Origin: a phage
NCBI GenBank assembly: GCA_027263115.1
Contig: GCA_027263115.1_3656.1
Reading direction: 5' to 3' (one strand)
Length of the DNA: 64,000 bases
Each line of letters begins with the position of its first letter. Within the stretch, counting starts at the first letter, position 1. A program made the position numbers and the translations under genes. The notes beneath the pieces are model-generated. The model had not been told where the DNA came from, did not search any database, and saw only the letters and a list, made by a program, of their open reading frames with translations. Of this stretch, positions 1-58,338 are shown in pieces.

Positions 1-263
1 ACACCGATGCGGAAAACAATATCTGCTGGGAGTTCGAAACTGAAGATATCCATAAACTTTTCACCTTCCTAGGTATTAAGGTTGAGGCCAAGTTTGAAGA
101 AGGCGAGTGCGACGATTGTGGATTCTACGAGGTAACAGATTTCTATCTCCCAAGTGGTGAGAACCTTTACTATGAAAGCCACTTCGGCAACTCAAATATG
201 CCACAAGGTTGGGATGAGTTTTTTGAAATTGCGGAAGAGGAGCTGACATACCGTGATTATTGA
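1..263 (+). CDS. hypothetical protein, C-terminal fragment (gene begins upstream of window)
   Basis: Open frame from window edge to TGA at 261-263, no internal stop. Confidence 0.45.
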   Translation, partial: TDAENNICWEFETEDIHKLFTFLGIKVEAKFEEGECDDCGFYEVTDFYLPSGENLYYESHFGNSNMPQGWDEFFEIAEEELTYRDY

Positions 264-711
264 TACTGTAGCGGGAGATTTAATCTCCCTTTTTAAGAGC
301 GGTGCTGGTCACCTGATCCACGGTTGTAACTGCTTTCATACAATGGGTGCAGGCATAGCGAAAGATATTGCCCGTGAGTTCCCTCAAGCACTGGCAGCCG
401 ACAAAGAGACTGCCTATGGTAATCTGGACAAGCTGGGTATGTTTTCTTGTTGGGAGCATTTTGCCAAGAACAGGGTCGTATATGGAATCAACCTGTATAC
501 CCAGTTCTACCCAGGGCCCAATGCTGAATACTTCTCAATAATGAAAGGTTTTGAGCGAGTCAACGAGGTATTCAAAGGTGTGTCATTGCCGTTCTACATT
601 CCTAAAATTGGATGCGGTATTGGCGGTCTAAAGTGGGAACATGTAGAAGATGTAATTAATCTTGCAACCACAGATATTGATGTGGTTGTAGTAGAGTACA
701 AAAAGTGTTGA
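253..711 (+). CDS. macro-domain-like protein (ADP-ribose binding/processing fold)
   Basis: 152 aa, GTG start after GAGGAG; Gly-rich segments HGCNCFHTMGAGIAKDIAREFP and PKIGCGIGG resemble macrodomain loops. Confidence 0.6.
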   Translation: MIIDTVAGDLISLFKSGAGHLIHGCNCFHTMGAGIAKDIAREFPQALAADKETAYGNLDKLGMFSCWEHFAKNRVVYGINLYTQFYPGPNAEYFSIMKGFERVNEVFKGVSLPFYIPKIGCGIGGLKWEHVEDVINLATTDIDVVVVEYKKC

Positions 712-736
712 CGACCATCTTCTGAGGTGATATAGT
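708..736 (+). promoter_or_regulatory. sigma70-type promoter TTGACG-N17-TATAGT
   Basis: Near-consensus -35/-10 with 17-nt spacer, upstream of small ORF 766..936. Confidence 0.5.
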
Positions 737-962: not shown

Positions 963-1157
963 ATGAGAAACAAGAAAGAGCTTTACTCTGGTGAGTGGAT
1001 CAACGATCAACAGGTGGGAGAGGTAACCTGCTTCAGATGTTTTACCAGGTACAATCTTAAAACTGCACCAAAAAGTGTTCCAAAGACTGATGGTTATTAC
1101 ATAAAAGAACCTCATTGCCCAAAATGTAAATGCCGATTGTACTGGAGCAATCTGTAA
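963..1157 (+). CDS. small zinc-ribbon protein
   Basis: ATG after GGGAGAG; two CxxC pairs (CFRC, CPKC); start trimmed from track ORF 906..1157. Confidence 0.5.
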   Translation: MRNKKELYSGEWINDQQVGEVTCFRCFTRYNLKTAPKSVPKTDGYYIKEPHCPKCKCRLYWSNL

Positions 1158-2540: not shown

Positions 2541-2850
2541 TATTTTAAGTTATCAGGTTGCCAGAGATCAGGAGGATTTCTAAAATGGATTTCCTCCTTT
2601 TGATATTTTACCTACCAGGATATTTTAAAATCCTTAGAAAATCAGAAAATGGATCGAAAACTAAAATGGATTTTTCAGAGCAGGCACGACGAGATGAACC
2701 ACTCATCCTATCGTCTGCACCATATTCCAGACCACCATTACAGATTTCCCGCACATGCTCACACCCTTCTACTAGAACTTCCCCCACTTACCCTTGACCT
2801 TTTATAGTAATAATCCAACCACTACCTTGAAGTTGTGGCGCAGCTTTCCA

Positions 2851-2938
2851 AGTACTCGATCTGTTTTTCGTTTCAAAGATTGAATTTTCTGAAAATTTTT
2901 CTCGATAAATTTCTCAGTACTCGATCTGTTTTTCGTTT
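2851..2938. repeat. direct repeat pair (22 bp AGTACTCGATCTGTTTTTCGTTT x2) in ORF-poor T-rich segment
   Basis: Identical copies at about 2851-2873 and 2916-2938, surrounded by related tttcgtttt / aaatggattt motifs. Confidence 0.6.
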
Positions 2939-3554
2939 TCTGAATCTGATTTTCTGGAAATCGTTCCGGCTCTCGACCTGAAATTTTTGGGGACGAAATC
3001 GATTTTTCGTTTTCAGAAATGGATTTTTAAAATTTCTATATGGGAATATTTTAGTGGATACTATTTTATAGGAAATTGTTACGGAGGGTAATTAGCGTGC
3101 TAATTAAATTTATTAAATGCGAGGAGTTCTCATTTAGAATTTTGAATGATAATCATTCTCGTTTGCAGAATAACGGGCAGGCCCGGTGATTGTCTCCCGG
3201 CCCCTACTGCCCCGGCTTGTTATTATAGTAACACACAGGACAAAGAAAGCAAGAAGTTTTTGCATAAATTTTTAGACGATAATGATAATCGTTCTCATTT
3301 CATGCAGCGCCCATCCCCGGTGGTTGTCTCCCCCGTCACCGGTGCCTGCCGTCCTTTCGATAGGTATATTTTGCCACCTGGCGGGGCCGCTGTCAACACT
3401 TTTCAAAAAAATTTCTAACCTGATGCGCTGACCGCTGCAACCTGGCGGGGCCAGCCTGGCAGGGCCTAACTGACCAGGTAGGAGAGAATGAAGGCTTGCA
3501 AACCTGGTGGGCCTATGCTATAGGATAGGTAACAATTGAAGAGGAGGTACAAAA

Positions 3555-3734: not shown

Positions 3735-3763
3735 TTGACAGCTCGGACAGTTCTTGTTATTCT
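3735..3763 (+). promoter_or_regulatory. sigma70-type promoter TTGACA-N17-TATTCT
   Basis: -35 consensus, moderate -10, upstream of ORF 3817. Confidence 0.45.
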
Positions 3764-4014: not shown

Positions 4015-4026
4015 TGTTGACATATG

Positions 4027-4055
4027 GTCTGACACAAAATACACTGAAATCGCAA
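4027..4055 (+). promoter_or_regulatory. sigma70-type promoter TTGACA-N17-TACACT
   Basis: Hexamers upstream of ORF 4078. Confidence 0.45.
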
Positions 4056-4482: not shown

Positions 4483-4510
4483 TTGACACGCTGCAAAATT
4501 TAAGTAAACT
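4483..4510 (+). promoter_or_regulatory. promoter-like TTGACA-N16-TAAACT followed by leader hairpin
   Basis: Consensus -35, weak -10; GC hairpin GGCGGGG...CCCGCC then CA-rich leader. Confidence 0.4.
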
Positions 4511-5153: not shown

Positions 5154-5181
5154 TTGACAAGCTAACTTAGATCAGTATACT
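5154..5181 (+). promoter_or_regulatory. sigma70-type promoter TTGACA-N16-TATACT
   Basis: Hexamers followed by GGGAA/TTCCC leader hairpin. Confidence 0.5.
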
Positions 5182-51573: not shown

Positions 51574-52335
51574 TTAAAGTTCCATAAAGTTTTCTACGGT
51601 CTCAATGAATGTTTTATCAGAGAAAGCGTCAACCGCCCCGTTAAACCAAACTGGGATGCCGCGATCCTCATACTGGTAAATATCACTACGTGAAATGCCA
51701 TTCTCCTCTAGATGCTGTGAGTCGTATTTGTTAACGATCAGCAGTTTGGTTCCCTTATTGCAGGCAGGGAATAGTTCCCAGTTAAAATTGATAACTGTGT
51801 TGGAACAACCTACAAGGATAACCATATCATTGCTAGTGAGAGAAGTCAACAGGTCATACATGTCTGTATACTTCGGAGCTACTTCTCCGAAGAACACCAC
51901 ATTAGGCTTAACCCAGATATACTTTCCTGCATCTACCTCAGAGTATCCAATGTCCCTAATGACGTTACTTCCTTCATCGTCATCATAGACTATTTCTGGC
52001 AAATACCCGTGGACATGTAGAATATCTTCATGTTTTACACCAGCACGCTCCAGCAAATCATCTACATTGGTGGTAAGATTGATCACACGGCCAGGCCAGC
52101 GGGAATACCACTCAGCGATCCGGAGATGCGCAAGGTTAGGATCAACACTGCCCAGAGCTACACGGCGTGCATTGTAAAAGTCATGCACCTTATAGTAGTT
52201 CTTGGCAAAGGTGTGGATGTTGCACACCTCATCGATGCTGAAATTCTCCCACATTGCAGTGCTACCAGATCGGAAAGTGGGAATACCAGATTCAGCGCTC
52301 AAACCAGCACCGGAGATAATAATCAGTCGTCGCAT
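51574..52335 (-). CDS. Sir2-family NAD-dependent deacylase / ADP-ribosyltransferase
   Basis: 253 aa; GAGLSAESGIPTFR, LTTNVDDL, LHVHGY; no obvious zinc-binding CxxC pairs. Confidence 0.8.
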   Translation of the reverse strand: MRRLIIISGAGLSAESGIPTFRSGSTAMWENFSIDEVCNIHTFAKNYYKVHDFYNARRVALGSVDPNLAHLRIAEWYSRWPGRVINLTTNVDDLLERAGVKHEDILHVHGYLPEIVYDDDEGSNVIRDIGYSEVDAGKYIWVKPNVVFFGEVAPKYTDMYDLLTSLTSNDMVILVGCSNTVINFNWELFPACNKGTKLLIVNKYDSQHLEENGISRSDIYQYEDRGIPVWFNGAVDAFSDKTFIETVENFMEL

Positions 52336-52343
52336 AAGTGTCC

Positions 52344-52694
52344 TCAGTAGATGTTTTGTTTAATCTCTATTCCAAACTTTTTAAACGAGTCAGCTGCAAG
52401 CATGAATTTACGAGCCGCTGATGGATTAGAAGTATGCACGAAAATCTTCACGTTGTCAACTACAGGAGGCTTACCAAATACAAATTTTTCCTCTAACATG
52501 CAGAAACAGTCGTACCCTTCGAAGACTTCTCCTAAATCGCTGTCAAAATGCCACTCAGAAACGCGCCTGTAGAGCTTTCTATTATCGTTAATAAAATCCA
52601 TGAACTCAGAAGAGTTCTTCAGCCAAAGAGCATCTTGGATTCCGTAATTTGACGGATCTCTCAAGTCATCCAGCCACACAATCAACTTCTTCAT
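52344..52694 (-). CDS. hypothetical protein
   Basis: Internal ATG (MKKLIVW) with ATGA coupling to upstream gene. Confidence 0.5.
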   Translation of the reverse strand: MKKLIVWLDDLRDPSNYGIQDALWLKNSSEFMDFINDNRKLYRRVSEWHFDSDLGEVFEGYDCFCMLEEKFVFGKPPVVDNVKIFVHTSNPSAARKFMLAADSFKKFGIEIKQNIY

Positions 52695-53608
52695 TGCATA
52701 TAGTCCTCGTTGTGAAAATAGCAATCAAGTATCTCACGGCGTTCCTGCTCCAGGAGGCAGTTCCACACATCTTCTGTGTAATTGCTACGAATGAAGTTTA
52801 CCATTCCGTAAAACTCTTCGTCAATACGTTTAAAGATATCATCATCCCAAATCTTCCAAGCTTTACCCCTCATTACGGCCTTCCGTGCCAAATAGTATGG
52901 AGACTTGATCTTCAGCTGCAGGTCATAAGGGTAGTAAGGCTTACGGATCATATACCCTTCGCCCATTGTTTCTGCAGCTAATTCTTTTGCATAGCTGAAC
53001 GGGATTTCACGCACAGTGTGAGGACGTTTTGCACCAAGGTATTTGGCAATCCCATCTAAAGCTGCTTCTGGTAGCATTATTCCAGAATCATTATATCTGC
53101 AACCTATCAAATATGCGCCATGGTCTTCTTGAACAATATGCGGATCTGAAGGGTGACAAATTTCAAACATGAATGTCATGTTTTCATTGCCCATAACCTT
53201 CTTGATAAGATCTAAATTACCACATTGCTCCCTGATGGTTTCTTTTGCGAGGTTACAATATGGGGAATCAAGAGACCCGGTTGTTGAGAACAATAGTTCA
53301 CCTTTATGAGATGATACCACACCGAGGAATCCGTTCTTTTTCTCTACCGCAGTAACAAGTTTACTGTCCGGTAGGTTGGTGGAGTTTTCTCCTAAGTTGA
53401 ATACTTTTGTGAAAGGCCATGCCACAACATTCCCCTCATTGCCAACAACAATACCTCGGCACTCCAGTAAACGCGGAGACAAATGCCACAGATCGTTGTA
53501 GAATACTTTTCTGGCATATTTATAGATCTTTAATCCAAGATCTGGATAATACCGACTGGTTACAAGACCTTTGTCTACTAGGTCATCTGCATTAAAATAC
53601 TTCATCAT
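52691..53608 (-). CDS. RNA ligase (Rnl2-like nucleotidyltransferase)
   Basis: Motif I KKNGF, motif IV EGYMIRK, motif V LKIKS; first ATG at 53626 lacks SD, ATG pair at 53608/53605 follows GAGGAA. Confidence 0.65.
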   Translation of the reverse strand: MMKYFNADDLVDKGLVTSRYYPDLGLKIYKYARKVFYNDLWHLSPRLLECRGIVVGNEGNVVAWPFTKVFNLGENSTNLPDSKLVTAVEKKNGFLGVVSSHKGELLFSTTGSLDSPYCNLAKETIREQCGNLDLIKKVMGNENMTFMFEICHPSDPHIVQEDHGAYLIGCRYNDSGIMLPEAALDGIAKYLGAKRPHTVREIPFSYAKELAAETMGEGYMIRKPYYPYDLQLKIKSPYYLARKAVMRGKAWKIWDDDIFKRIDEEFYGMVNFIRSNYTEDVWNCLLEQERREILDCYFHNEDYMQ

Positions 53609-53669
53609 ACGTTCCTCATTTGTCATTTTGTCAGTCTATCCTGCCACACAAATAACCTAGTGTCAACAC

Positions 53670-57526: not shown

Positions 57527-57601
57527 GCCCTGTTAGCTTAGTGGATAAAGCAGCGGCCTTCTAAGCCGTTGACACTGGTTCGAGTCCAGTACGGGGTGCC
57601 A
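57527..57601 (+). tRNA. tRNA-Arg (anticodon TCT)
   Basis: Hand-folded cloverleaf: 7-bp acceptor, D-arm GCTT/AAGC, anticodon loop CTTCTAA, T-loop TTCGAGT, encoded CCA. Confidence 0.75.
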
Positions 57602-57605
57602 AATT

Positions 57606-57692
57606 GGGGAGTTATCCCGTAGAGGTAGCGGTGTAGACTGTAAATCTATTGTCATTGCGACTCGGGTGGTTCGACTCCACCACTCCCCACCA
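57606..57692 (+). tRNA. tRNA-Tyr (anticodon GTA), long variable arm
   Basis: Acceptor GGGGAGT/ACTCCCC, anticodon loop CTGTAAA, T-loop TTCGACT, CCA; 87 nt. Confidence 0.65.
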
Positions 57693-57805
57693 AATTTATA
57701 TTTTAGATGCATAAATAATACAGATAATGGCATTGATATTTATCGTCGTTTATACTAGTCACTAACTGCTCGAAAATCAGTGTCATTATCAGTATAATTT
57801 ACAAA

Positions 57806-57896
57806 GGAGGGTAGGGAGCAATGGTGCTCAAGCGGTCTTGAAAACCGTCCCATTGAGGATGACTCGATGATGGTTCGATTCCATTACTCTCCGCCA
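57806..57896 (+). tRNA. tRNA-Ser (anticodon TGA), long variable arm
   Basis: Acceptor GGAGGGT/ACTCTCC, anticodon loop CTTGAAA, T-loop TTCGATT, CCA; 91 nt. Confidence 0.65.
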
Positions 57897-57994
57897 CATT
57901 GTTGACCTTGTAATTAAGCGAAAGCCGGAAGCAGAACCGGATTATCAAATGTTACAGTCGTCATCGCCGACTAGCAACATGGTCAACATACTGA

Positions 57995-58093
57995 GCTAGG
58001 TAAGCCCTTTGGCAAGGGCGAGGATTTTTAATCCTGAAAATAGACGAGGTAGTCGTTGAATACATAGATGGTTCGATTCCATCACCTAGCACC
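57995..58093 (+). tRNA. atypical tRNA-like element (possible tRNA-Lys TTT with about 25-nt insertion, or pseudo-tRNA)
   Basis: Perfect 7-bp acceptor GCTAGGT/ACCTAGC, canonical T-arm GATGG-TTCGATT-CCATC, D-arm GCCC/GGGC, TTT-containing loop; about 99 nt; no encoded CCA. Confidence 0.35.
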
Positions 58094-58098
58094 TTTTT

Positions 58099-58174
58099 GC
58101 TGATGTAGCACAATTGGTAGTGCAATTGATTTGTAATCAATAGGTTGCAGGTTCAAGTCCTGCCATCAGCACCA
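58099..58174 (+). tRNA. tRNA-Thr (anticodon TGT)
   Basis: Acceptor GCTGATG/CATCAGC, D-arm GCAC/GTGC, anticodon loop TTTGTAA, T-loop TTCAAGT, CCA. Confidence 0.75.
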
Positions 58175-58175
58175 T

Positions 58176-58250
58176 GGCCCTGTAGCTGGAAGGTTCAAGC
58201 AAGCGACTCATAATCGCCAGACGGTGGTTCAATTCCACCCAGGGCCACCA
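58176..58250 (+). tRNA. tRNA-Met or tRNA-Ile2 (anticodon CAT), elongator-type
   Basis: Acceptor GGCCCTG/CAGGGCC with paired 1-72, anticodon loop CTCATAA, T-loop TTCAATT, CCA. Confidence 0.65.
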
Positions 58251-58261
58251 AATAGTAGATA

Positions 58262-58338
58262 CTCCGCGTAGCTCAGCTTGGTAGAGCGCCTGATTTGGGA
58301 TCAGGAGGTCGAGTGTTCGAATCACTCCGTGGAGACCA
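58262..58338 (+). tRNA. tRNA-Pro (anticodon TGG)
   Basis: C1-G72 acceptor, D-arm GCTC-AGCTTGGTAG-AGC, anticodon loop TTTGGGA, T-loop TTCGAAT, CCA. Confidence 0.75.

Follow-up and report, generated by a model that had tools for sequence, protein, structure and literature searches.

In phage T4, transposon sequencing on a DarTG2 host gave tk.4 as the sole significant hit (2025 preprint, 10.1101/2025.11.20.689424). A clean T4 knockout of this gene was sensitised to DarTG2, and the gene was named adfM, for anti-DarT factor Macrodomain (10.1101/2025.11.20.689424). The removal of ADP-ribose (adenosine diphosphate ribose) from DNA by T4 AdfM was inferred by the authors from its similarity to Mycobacterium tuberculosis DarG (10.1101/2025.11.20.689424). 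Additionally, gp104 of phage PhiKZ, independently named AdfM, removes DarT2 adducts from DNA in vitro; its active site contains N23 and K78, and the N23A substitution reduces activity (PMC13309987). A bacterial macrodomain, SCO6735 of Streptomyces coelicolor, removes thymidine-linked, not guanosine-linked, ADP-ribose from DNA and rescues Escherichia coli from DarT (PMC9411070). Here, a gene located at positions 253-711 (+) of a 64,000-nucleotide stretch of phage DNA (GenBank assembly GCA_027263115.1, contig GCA_027263115.1_3656.1; herein, the window) is compared with these systems. Judged from homology, its product is probably a stand-alone ADP-ribosyl glycohydrolase of the Tk.4/AdfM family, which would remove DarT2 adducts from phage DNA and counter DarTG2.

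In the program-made list of open reading frames (ORFs), positions 253-711 (+) form one ORF, stop codon included, for a single-domain protein of 152 residues. This protein scored 25.9 bits against the Pfam Macro model (PF01661; gathering cut-off 22, E=1e-5) and matched PHROG 335, which carries the label 'phosphatase', with E=1.4e-59. Two models of DarG were matched in their macro part only: the NCBIfam model NF048014 (E=1.7e-12, profile positions 4-144 of 338), with 47.3 bits against an equivalog cut-off of 250, and the PADLOC model (E=1.4e-13, positions 9-143 of 329). In the single-sequence search, the closest proteins of known structure in the PDB were the DarG macrodomain of M. tuberculosis (5M3I, the best match), yeast Poa1p, SCO6735, and human TARG1. 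A family profile lifted the matches to DarG, Poa1p, SCO6735, and TARG1 to E values of 1e-12 to 1e-14.

The AlphaFold2 model, built with 77 homologues, had a predicted local distance difference test score (pLDDT) of 96.7 and a predicted template modelling score (pTM) of 0.91. The top matches of this model in a Foldseek search of the PDB were TARG1, Poa1p, DarG of Thermus aquaticus and M. tuberculosis, BT1257, and SCO6735. Matches to TARG1, Poa1p, DarG, and SCO6735 had a probability of 1.00 and template modelling (TM) scores of 0.71-0.78, and they share a three-layer alpha/beta/alpha fold with a central mixed sheet. Viral MacroD-type domains stood clearly lower in this ranking than the group of TARG1, DarG, and SCO6735. 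Because of the sequence and profile matches in the PDB and the Foldseek ranking, the window protein can be assigned, from sequence and predicted structure, to the TARG1/DarG/SCO6735 (ALC1-like) class of macrodomains. The sequence-only reading, made from the letters without database searches, had proposed a macrodomain-like protein and a profile search as a check; sequence, profile, and fold agree with that proposal, with Pfam Macro above its threshold.

BLASTP aligned T4 Tk.4 with residues 1-150 of the window protein, that is, over the full length, with 39% identity and E=1e-43. The T4-like phage JSE has a tk.4 product with 69% identity to the window protein, and the JSE gene lies in the order vs - tk.4 - tk, as in T4. 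Because of this 69% identity and the full-length homology to T4 Tk.4, the window protein is assigned by sequence to the Tk.4 family (PHROG 335), and the gene has probably been exchanged between T4-like and rV5-like phages. Between PhiKZ gp104 and the window protein, identity is only 22% (E=8e-5), and the T4-type and PhiKZ proteins, both called AdfM, form by sequence separate branches of the macrodomain class.

Homologues were found by tblastn in 2,742 of 50,697 phage records. The phages concerned are T4-like, rV5-like, Felix O1-like, and Vi01-like phages as well as phages of Acinetobacter, Vibrio, Pseudomonas, and Bacillus. When 1.84 billion representative proteins were searched with a profile, 1,253 clusters reached E<=1e-30 and 18,018 reached E<=1e-3. 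These numbers of homologues, like the Pfam and PHROG matches, far exceed what chance would give. Tk.4-type macrodomains also occur in bacteria as lone chromosomal genes with no DarT nearby. Truncated copies were found in some relatives; the copy of phage V18 (KY683736.1, 111289-111462) matches residues 1-58 only, and clusters P0017, P0018, and P0046 also hold truncated forms. The gene appears to be dispensable and sometimes lost, which fits an accessory counter-defence gene.

Conservation in the family was counted over 120 homologues. Invariant or nearly invariant residues are H23, G24, N26, C27, M31, G34, A36, D50, K60, N80, Y82, T83, Q84, P117, G120, G122, and G125. The first predicted ADP-ribose-binding loop, residues 23-36 (HGCNCFHTMGAGIA), is encoded at 319-360 (+) and was delimited by invariant residues and by alignment with reference proteins. 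The second Gly-rich loop, PKIGCGIGG (residues 117-125, encoded at 601-627, +), is predicted to bind the diphosphate on the basis of its invariant P117, G120, and G122 and of the alignment with TARG1. Both loops align with the loops of TARG1, DarG, and SCO6735. The Gly-rich segments noticed by the sequence-only reading, MGAGIA (residues 31-36) and IGCGIGG (residues 119-125), are indeed there; conservation in the family is highest in these two segments, and their G34, A36, G120, and G122 are invariant.

The motif NLYTQ (residues 80-84, encoded at 490-504, +) is placed by alignments and family conservation on a strand that ends in the invariant Gln84. In a profile alignment, Q84 stands at K84 of TARG1, a numbering that was checked through D125 of the motif GCGLD. 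When reference proteins were aligned with MAFFT, Q84 stood at the catalytic Lys of DarG (FPTK; K80 in T. aquaticus DarG), at K78 of PhiKZ AdfM, and at Q85 of SCO6735 (IGQ). Gln was found at this position in 118 of the 120 homologues and Lys in none, and T4 Tk.4 carries the same NLYTQF motif. By these alignments, the Tk.4 family as a whole belongs with SCO6735 to the Gln type and not with DarG and PhiKZ AdfM to the Lys type. In the first loop, N26 aligns with N23 of PhiKZ AdfM and hence with N22 of T. aquaticus DarG. H23, present in 119 of the 120 homologues, aligns with H23 of Poa1p and with the His of TARG1 and SCO6735, and T30 takes the place of a Ser of Poa1p. In the second loop, G124 stands in the column of TARG1 D125. 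Three other residues, D50, K60, and Y82 (nucleotides 400-402, 430-432, and 496-498), are invariant or nearly so in the family and have no counterpart in DarG, TARG1, SCO6735, or PhiKZ AdfM.

For SCO6735, the Q85A variant is inactive, and a water-mediated mechanism was proposed in which the Gln positions the distal ribose (PMC9411070). As Gln takes the place of the Lys that is catalytic in DarG and TARG1, substrate positioning of this water-mediated kind is, by analogy, more likely for the window protein than Lys-dependent chemistry. The same substitutions could be read differently. Since Q84 and G124 stand where TARG1 has its catalytic Lys and Asp, the Lys being shared with DarG, the window protein might be a non-catalytic reader of ADP-ribose or an inhibitor that acts by binding DarT instead of by hydrolysis. 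Catalytically dead SCO6735 still inhibits DarT by interaction (PMC9411070), and the phage anti-DarT factor AdfB works by DarT binding. We consider such a role very improbable: Q84, N26, and both Gly-rich loops are invariant across the 120 homologues, as an active site should be; SCO6735 needs its equivalent Gln for catalysis (PMC9411070); and the window protein has no counterpart of the C-terminal DarT-binding domain of DarG.

The glycohydrolase reading implies the following sequence of events. After infection, host DarT2 would ADP-ribosylate thymidines of single-stranded phage DNA, and replication would be blocked. The phage macrodomain would use N26 and the two Gly-rich loops to bind the ADP-ribose, while Gln84 would position the distal ribose. 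Hydrolysis of the bond between thymidine and ribose would then release free ADP-ribose and restore the DNA, and the phage would escape DarTG2. The same substrate and role in the Vequintavirus protein as in its relatives are inferred from sequence similarity. The suggestion made from the sequence alone that a phage macrodomain could reverse DarT-type modification gains support from T4, in which the orthologue Tk.4/AdfM is genetically required on DarTG2 hosts; the window protein is tied to it through homology, as a full-length homologue with the same invariant motifs.

DarTG2 restricts phage T5 (10.1101/2025.11.20.689424; PMC11825919). In line with the anti-DarT2 reading, no member of the Tk.4 family was found by profile search (E<=10) in all 121,750 bp of the T5 genome; in the same scan, the positive controls T4, JSE, Acinetobacter phage D22, Vibrio phage Pontus, and the window gave E values of 1e-34 to 1e-62.

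Domain fusions within the family also bear on the substrate. A Q-type macrodomain was found fused to NADAR in proteins P0161, P0212, and P0220 and to DUF4326 in P0161 and P0165; these proteins have the same NxYTQ motif. NADAR removes guanine-linked ADP-ribose placed by DarT1, both in DarG1 and in the phage protein AdfN (PMC11825919), and the fusion of the two domains fits a shared job on ADP-ribosylated DNA. The contigs of two such fusion loci (L092 and L093) consist mostly of ORFans. A tblastn search of the 64-kb window for a NADAR partner or NARP1-like genes found none, and a literature search that combined NARP1 with macrodomains returned no papers.

The NADAR fusions, by pointing to nucleic-acid adducts, count against another explanation, in which the enzyme would erase ADP-ribose from proteins or RNA instead of DNA, either countering other ADP-ribosyltransferase defences or toxins or resetting ADP-ribosylation that arises during infection. 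Among characterised proteins, TARG1 and SCO6735 come closest in fold, and both also remove ADP-ribose from proteins; the Gln-type SCO6735 works on both protein and DNA substrates (PMC9411070). The very large size of the family, with its lone bacterial chromosomal genes, would likewise agree with substrates other than those of DarT. However, no ADP-ribosyltransferase gene was identified beside the macro gene, and the T4 screen tied tk.4 specifically to DarTG2 (10.1101/2025.11.20.689424). On balance, protein or RNA as the substrate is unlikely.

Several points weigh against removal of DarT2 adducts by the window protein. The evidence from T4 is genetic and comes from a preprint, and the biochemistry of a Tk.4-type protein is unreported. 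Identity to T4 Tk.4 is only 39%. With the catalytic Lys of DarG absent, the case for activity leans on the SCO6735 precedent, and the 'MKTGS' insertion of SCO6735, a mobile loop after the Gln, has no counterpart in the window protein. The match of H23 and T30 to H23 and S30 of Poa1p makes a small-molecule substrate possible, and in a few phages cassettes of NAMPT-like and PRPP-synthetase-like genes around the gene hint at metabolism of nicotinamide adenine dinucleotide (NAD) instead of, or besides, DNA repair. A literature search found no paper in which DarTG2 was tested against Vequintavirinae; the work on the V5-like phage Bas54 in the T4 preprint dealt with other defence systems (10.1101/2025.11.20.689424).

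The last of these sequence features belong to a third explanation, that the protein is a small-molecule hydrolase, either a phosphatase of ADP-ribose-1''-phosphate, as Poa1p is, or a deacetylase of O-acetyl-ADP-ribose, as TARG1/OARD1 is. By-products derived from NAD would be turned into free ADP-ribose, perhaps in a step after the phage Sir2 or as a supply for NAD+ reconstitution. This explanation would agree with the historical annotation of the family ('phosphatase / A1pp motif / Poa1p-like') and with the place of Poa1p among the top sequence and fold matches. H23 and S30 of Poa1p are the residues mutated in its deposited structures, but the His of the first pair also occurs in TARG1 and SCO6735. 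Weak phosphatase activity on ADP-ribose-1''-phosphate is moreover a widespread side activity of macrodomains in vitro.

A Sir2 gene does exist in the window. It is located at 51574-52335 (-), matches Pfam SIR2 with E=1.7e-26, and belongs to the opposite transcription unit, beside a gene for a T4 Rnl1-like RNA ligase at 52691-53626 (-). Phage homologues of this Sir2 were found in about 1,000 phage records, mostly of T5-like and phAPEC8-like phages; in T5 it is T5.102. The sequence-only reading had offered, as an alternative task of the macrodomain, the processing of O-acetyl-ADP-ribose made by this Sir2-like enzyme. That coupling finds no support: the two genes are 51 kb apart on different strands, T5 has the Sir2 gene and, by the whole-genome scan, no such macrodomain, the tk.4 neighbourhoods of T4 and JSE contain no Sir2 gene, and a scan of 80 viral loci found no Sir2 within 3 kb of the macro gene.

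Elsewhere in the family, gene neighbourhoods hint at NAD metabolism. The homologue adjoins NAMPT-like or PRPP-synthetase-like genes in D22, in Pontus, and in 3 of the 80 viral loci. In D22 (L004, 940-4474) and Pontus (L005, 3132-6195), the Q-type homologue lies inside a cassette of PRPP-synthetase-like and NAMPT-like genes, and L057, L067, and L073 also have a NAMPT-like neighbour. These phages are unrelated to one another, and such pairs consist of gene types known from phage pathways of NAD+ reconstitution; ADP-ribose released there may be recycled into NAD+. However, no homologue of NAMPT or PRPP synthetase was found in the 64-kb window, and the sole phenotype known for the family is DarTG2 sensitivity. 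A small-molecule substrate is therefore quite unlikely for the window protein, and DarT2 adducts on phage DNA remain the more probable one.

A broader view of the family, which we put forward as a speculation with a low chance of being right as a whole, is that Tk.4 proteins are a distinct, phage-spread branch of Gln-type erasers, marked by invariant residues of its own (D50, K60, Y82, and Q84). Such a branch would perhaps have a new mechanism and a broader range that takes in DNA, protein, and nucleotide adducts; some members would be wired to NAD+ reconstitution genes that recycle ADP-ribose to NAD+, and expression would perhaps be regulated by a hairpin in the coding sequence, as outlined below.

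The macro gene starts with GTG at 253, the earliest start codon past the in-frame TGA at 244-246; this TGA rules out here the longer start annotated in phage PMBT16. Homologues including T4 Tk.4 share the same first residue. A Shine-Dalgarno-like GAGGAG, read from the sequence at 237-242 (+), lies 10 nucleotides 5' of the GTG and is kept in two relatives (L001 and L003). Only one gene precedes it in the window, in agreement with the earlier reading. That gene is cut by the left edge, so that only its 3' part (1-263, +) is seen, and ends with the TGA at 261-263; it encodes 141 residues in the annotations of the relatives rV5_ev168 and PMBT16 and has no Pfam match. Its end overlaps the macro start by 11 nucleotides, which suggests co-transcription of the two genes and possibly translational coupling.

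Within the coding sequence, codons 8-14 contain on the sense strand a terminator-like hairpin at 273-294 (+), GGGAGAT-TTA-ATCTCCC followed by TTTTT, of about -10 kcal/mol. In a comparison of 85 homologous loci, the same hairpin was found at the same codons in tk.4 of T4 and JSE, in many T4-like viral contigs, and in loci L028 and L056. An A:U to C:G swap in the stem separates Vequintaviruses, with GGA/TCC (Ser12), from T4-like phages, with GGC/GCC (Ala12). Presence of the hairpin follows the peptide GD[IL][IV][AS]L, and it is absent where the peptide differs. The hairpin may thus simply reflect codon choice, or it may be a conserved element with a regulatory role.

A sigma-70-like promoter, TTGACG-17-TATAGT with a TG extension, was found at 708-736 (+), overlapping the macro stop codon, and is kept in rV5_ev168. 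It likely serves the next small gene (766-936) and not the macro gene. Many of the small ORFs downstream of the macro gene are preceded by strong promoters of this type: 26 near-consensus sites were counted, about twice the 12.4 expected in shuffled sequence. Besides 708-736, such sites on the + strand are located at 1162-1189, 3735-3763, 4017-4045, 4483-4510, and 5154-5181, and the one at 1162-1189 is a perfect TTGACA-16-TATAAT. The relative rV5_ev168 also has sigma-70-like sites some 310 and 530 nucleotides upstream of the macro gene, past a strong terminator, in a region that falls outside the window.

Over its first 3 kb, the window shares 98.5% identity with Escherichia phage naam and 95-97% with many rV5-like phages, and by this similarity it comes from a Vequintavirus (rV5-like) E. 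coli phage. In related records, the macro gene is labelled 'macro domain protein', 'Poa1p-like family protein', or 'T4-like protein with Macro domain'. There it lies on the same strand as rIIA/rIIB and the genes for a helicase, a primase/helicase, DNA polymerase, and endonuclease VII, closes this block of replication genes, and is followed by dozens of tiny ORFs. Early or middle expression of the gene is plausible from this arrangement and from the sigma-70-like sites upstream in rV5_ev168; the early expression named by the sequence-only reading is an assumption.

The three upstream and seven downstream neighbours of the macro gene gave a single Pfam match, a phage zinc-binding domain, and no darT was found among them. 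The match, to 'Phage zinc binding domain' PF23903 (E=8e-23), belongs to the gene at 963-1157 (+), two genes downstream of the macro gene. A terminator scan gave a 16-pair stem at 2983-3020 (+), inside a gene-poor region of about 2550-3550 in which relatives annotate very small ORFs only or none. A cluster of seven tRNA genes occupies 57527-58338 (+); the ARAGORN call at 57995-58093 has a four-nucleotide anticodon and is given no identity.

The gene is already annotated publicly as a macrodomain, and the family already has a named function against DarTG2. The present analysis adds the Gln-type character of the Tk.4 family throughout and the macro-NADAR fusions within it. If the window protein does act on DarT2 adducts, rV5-like phages, candidate agents of phage therapy and of biocontrol of E. 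coli O157, carry an enzymatic antidote to DarTG2, and this would help to predict their host range on DarTG2-positive strains. The anti-DarT macrodomain strategy would then reach a third group of myoviruses, beyond the T4-like and PhiKZ-like ones.

Among the known systems, the DarG2 macrodomain (PDB 5M31, 5M3E, and 5M3I) has the same fold with the Asn and Gly-rich loops. Complete DarG2, in contrast, has about 340 residues, a C-terminal DarT-binding domain, Lys80, and a darT gene next to it, whereas the window protein is a single domain of 152 residues with Gln84. A full DarG or DarTG operon is ruled out at this locus by size, by the score far below the equivalog cut-off, and by the lack of a darT gene among the three upstream and seven downstream neighbours, of the catalytic Lys, and of the DarT-binding domain.

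Human TARG1/OARD1 (PDB 4J5R/4J5S) is the top profile and Foldseek match, is of the same size, and also has a His before the motif of the first loop. Its K84/D125 dyad is, however, replaced by Q84/G124 in the window protein; in addition, TARG1 is a eukaryotic enzyme whose main substrates are Glu/Asp-linked protein ADP-ribose and O-acetyl-ADP-ribose. Yeast Poa1p (PDB 6LFQ-6LFU), an ADP-ribose-1''-phosphate phosphatase, shares the IH(S/G)CNC loop, the aligned pair H23 and S30 (H23 and T30 in the window protein), and a strong fold match, and it is the origin of the database label 'Poa1p-like'. It differs in being longer (chains of 180 residues), with the middle of the protein unaligned in the single-sequence search, and in its substrate, a by-product of tRNA splicing with no evident source in the window phage.

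PhiKZ AdfM is likewise a stand-alone phage macrodomain and keeps the Asn of the first loop (N23 there, N26 here). It differs from the window protein in being DarG-like, with the catalytic Lys K78 in place of Gln, and in being imported into the phage nucleus. No Vequintavirus is known to build such a nucleus.

With T4 Tk.4, the window protein shares PHROG 335, length, the motifs HGCNCFHTMG(A/S)G(I/V)A, NLYTQF-PGPN, and P-IG-GIG, and the Gln at the position of the catalytic Lys. Both are stand-alone proteins of virulent E. coli myoviruses. The two differ in neighbourhood, which is vs - tk.4 - tk in T4 and the end of the replication block in the window phage, and in 61% of the sequence; the anti-DarTG2 phenotype has been shown for T4 only.

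SCO6735 (PDB 5E3B) differs in being bacterial and regulated by DNA damage, in its five-residue insertion after the Gln, and in sequence, with about 22% identity in a structural alignment. It nonetheless shares with the window protein the ALC1-like fold, Gln in place of the catalytic Lys (Q85 and Q84, respectively), the His-x-Cys-Asn loop, and the status of an orphan without a DarT partner. The Gln-for-Lys site would tie the Tk.4 family mechanistically to SCO6735 and not to DarG, and the informative mutants of the window protein would be Q84A and N26A instead of a Lys mutant.

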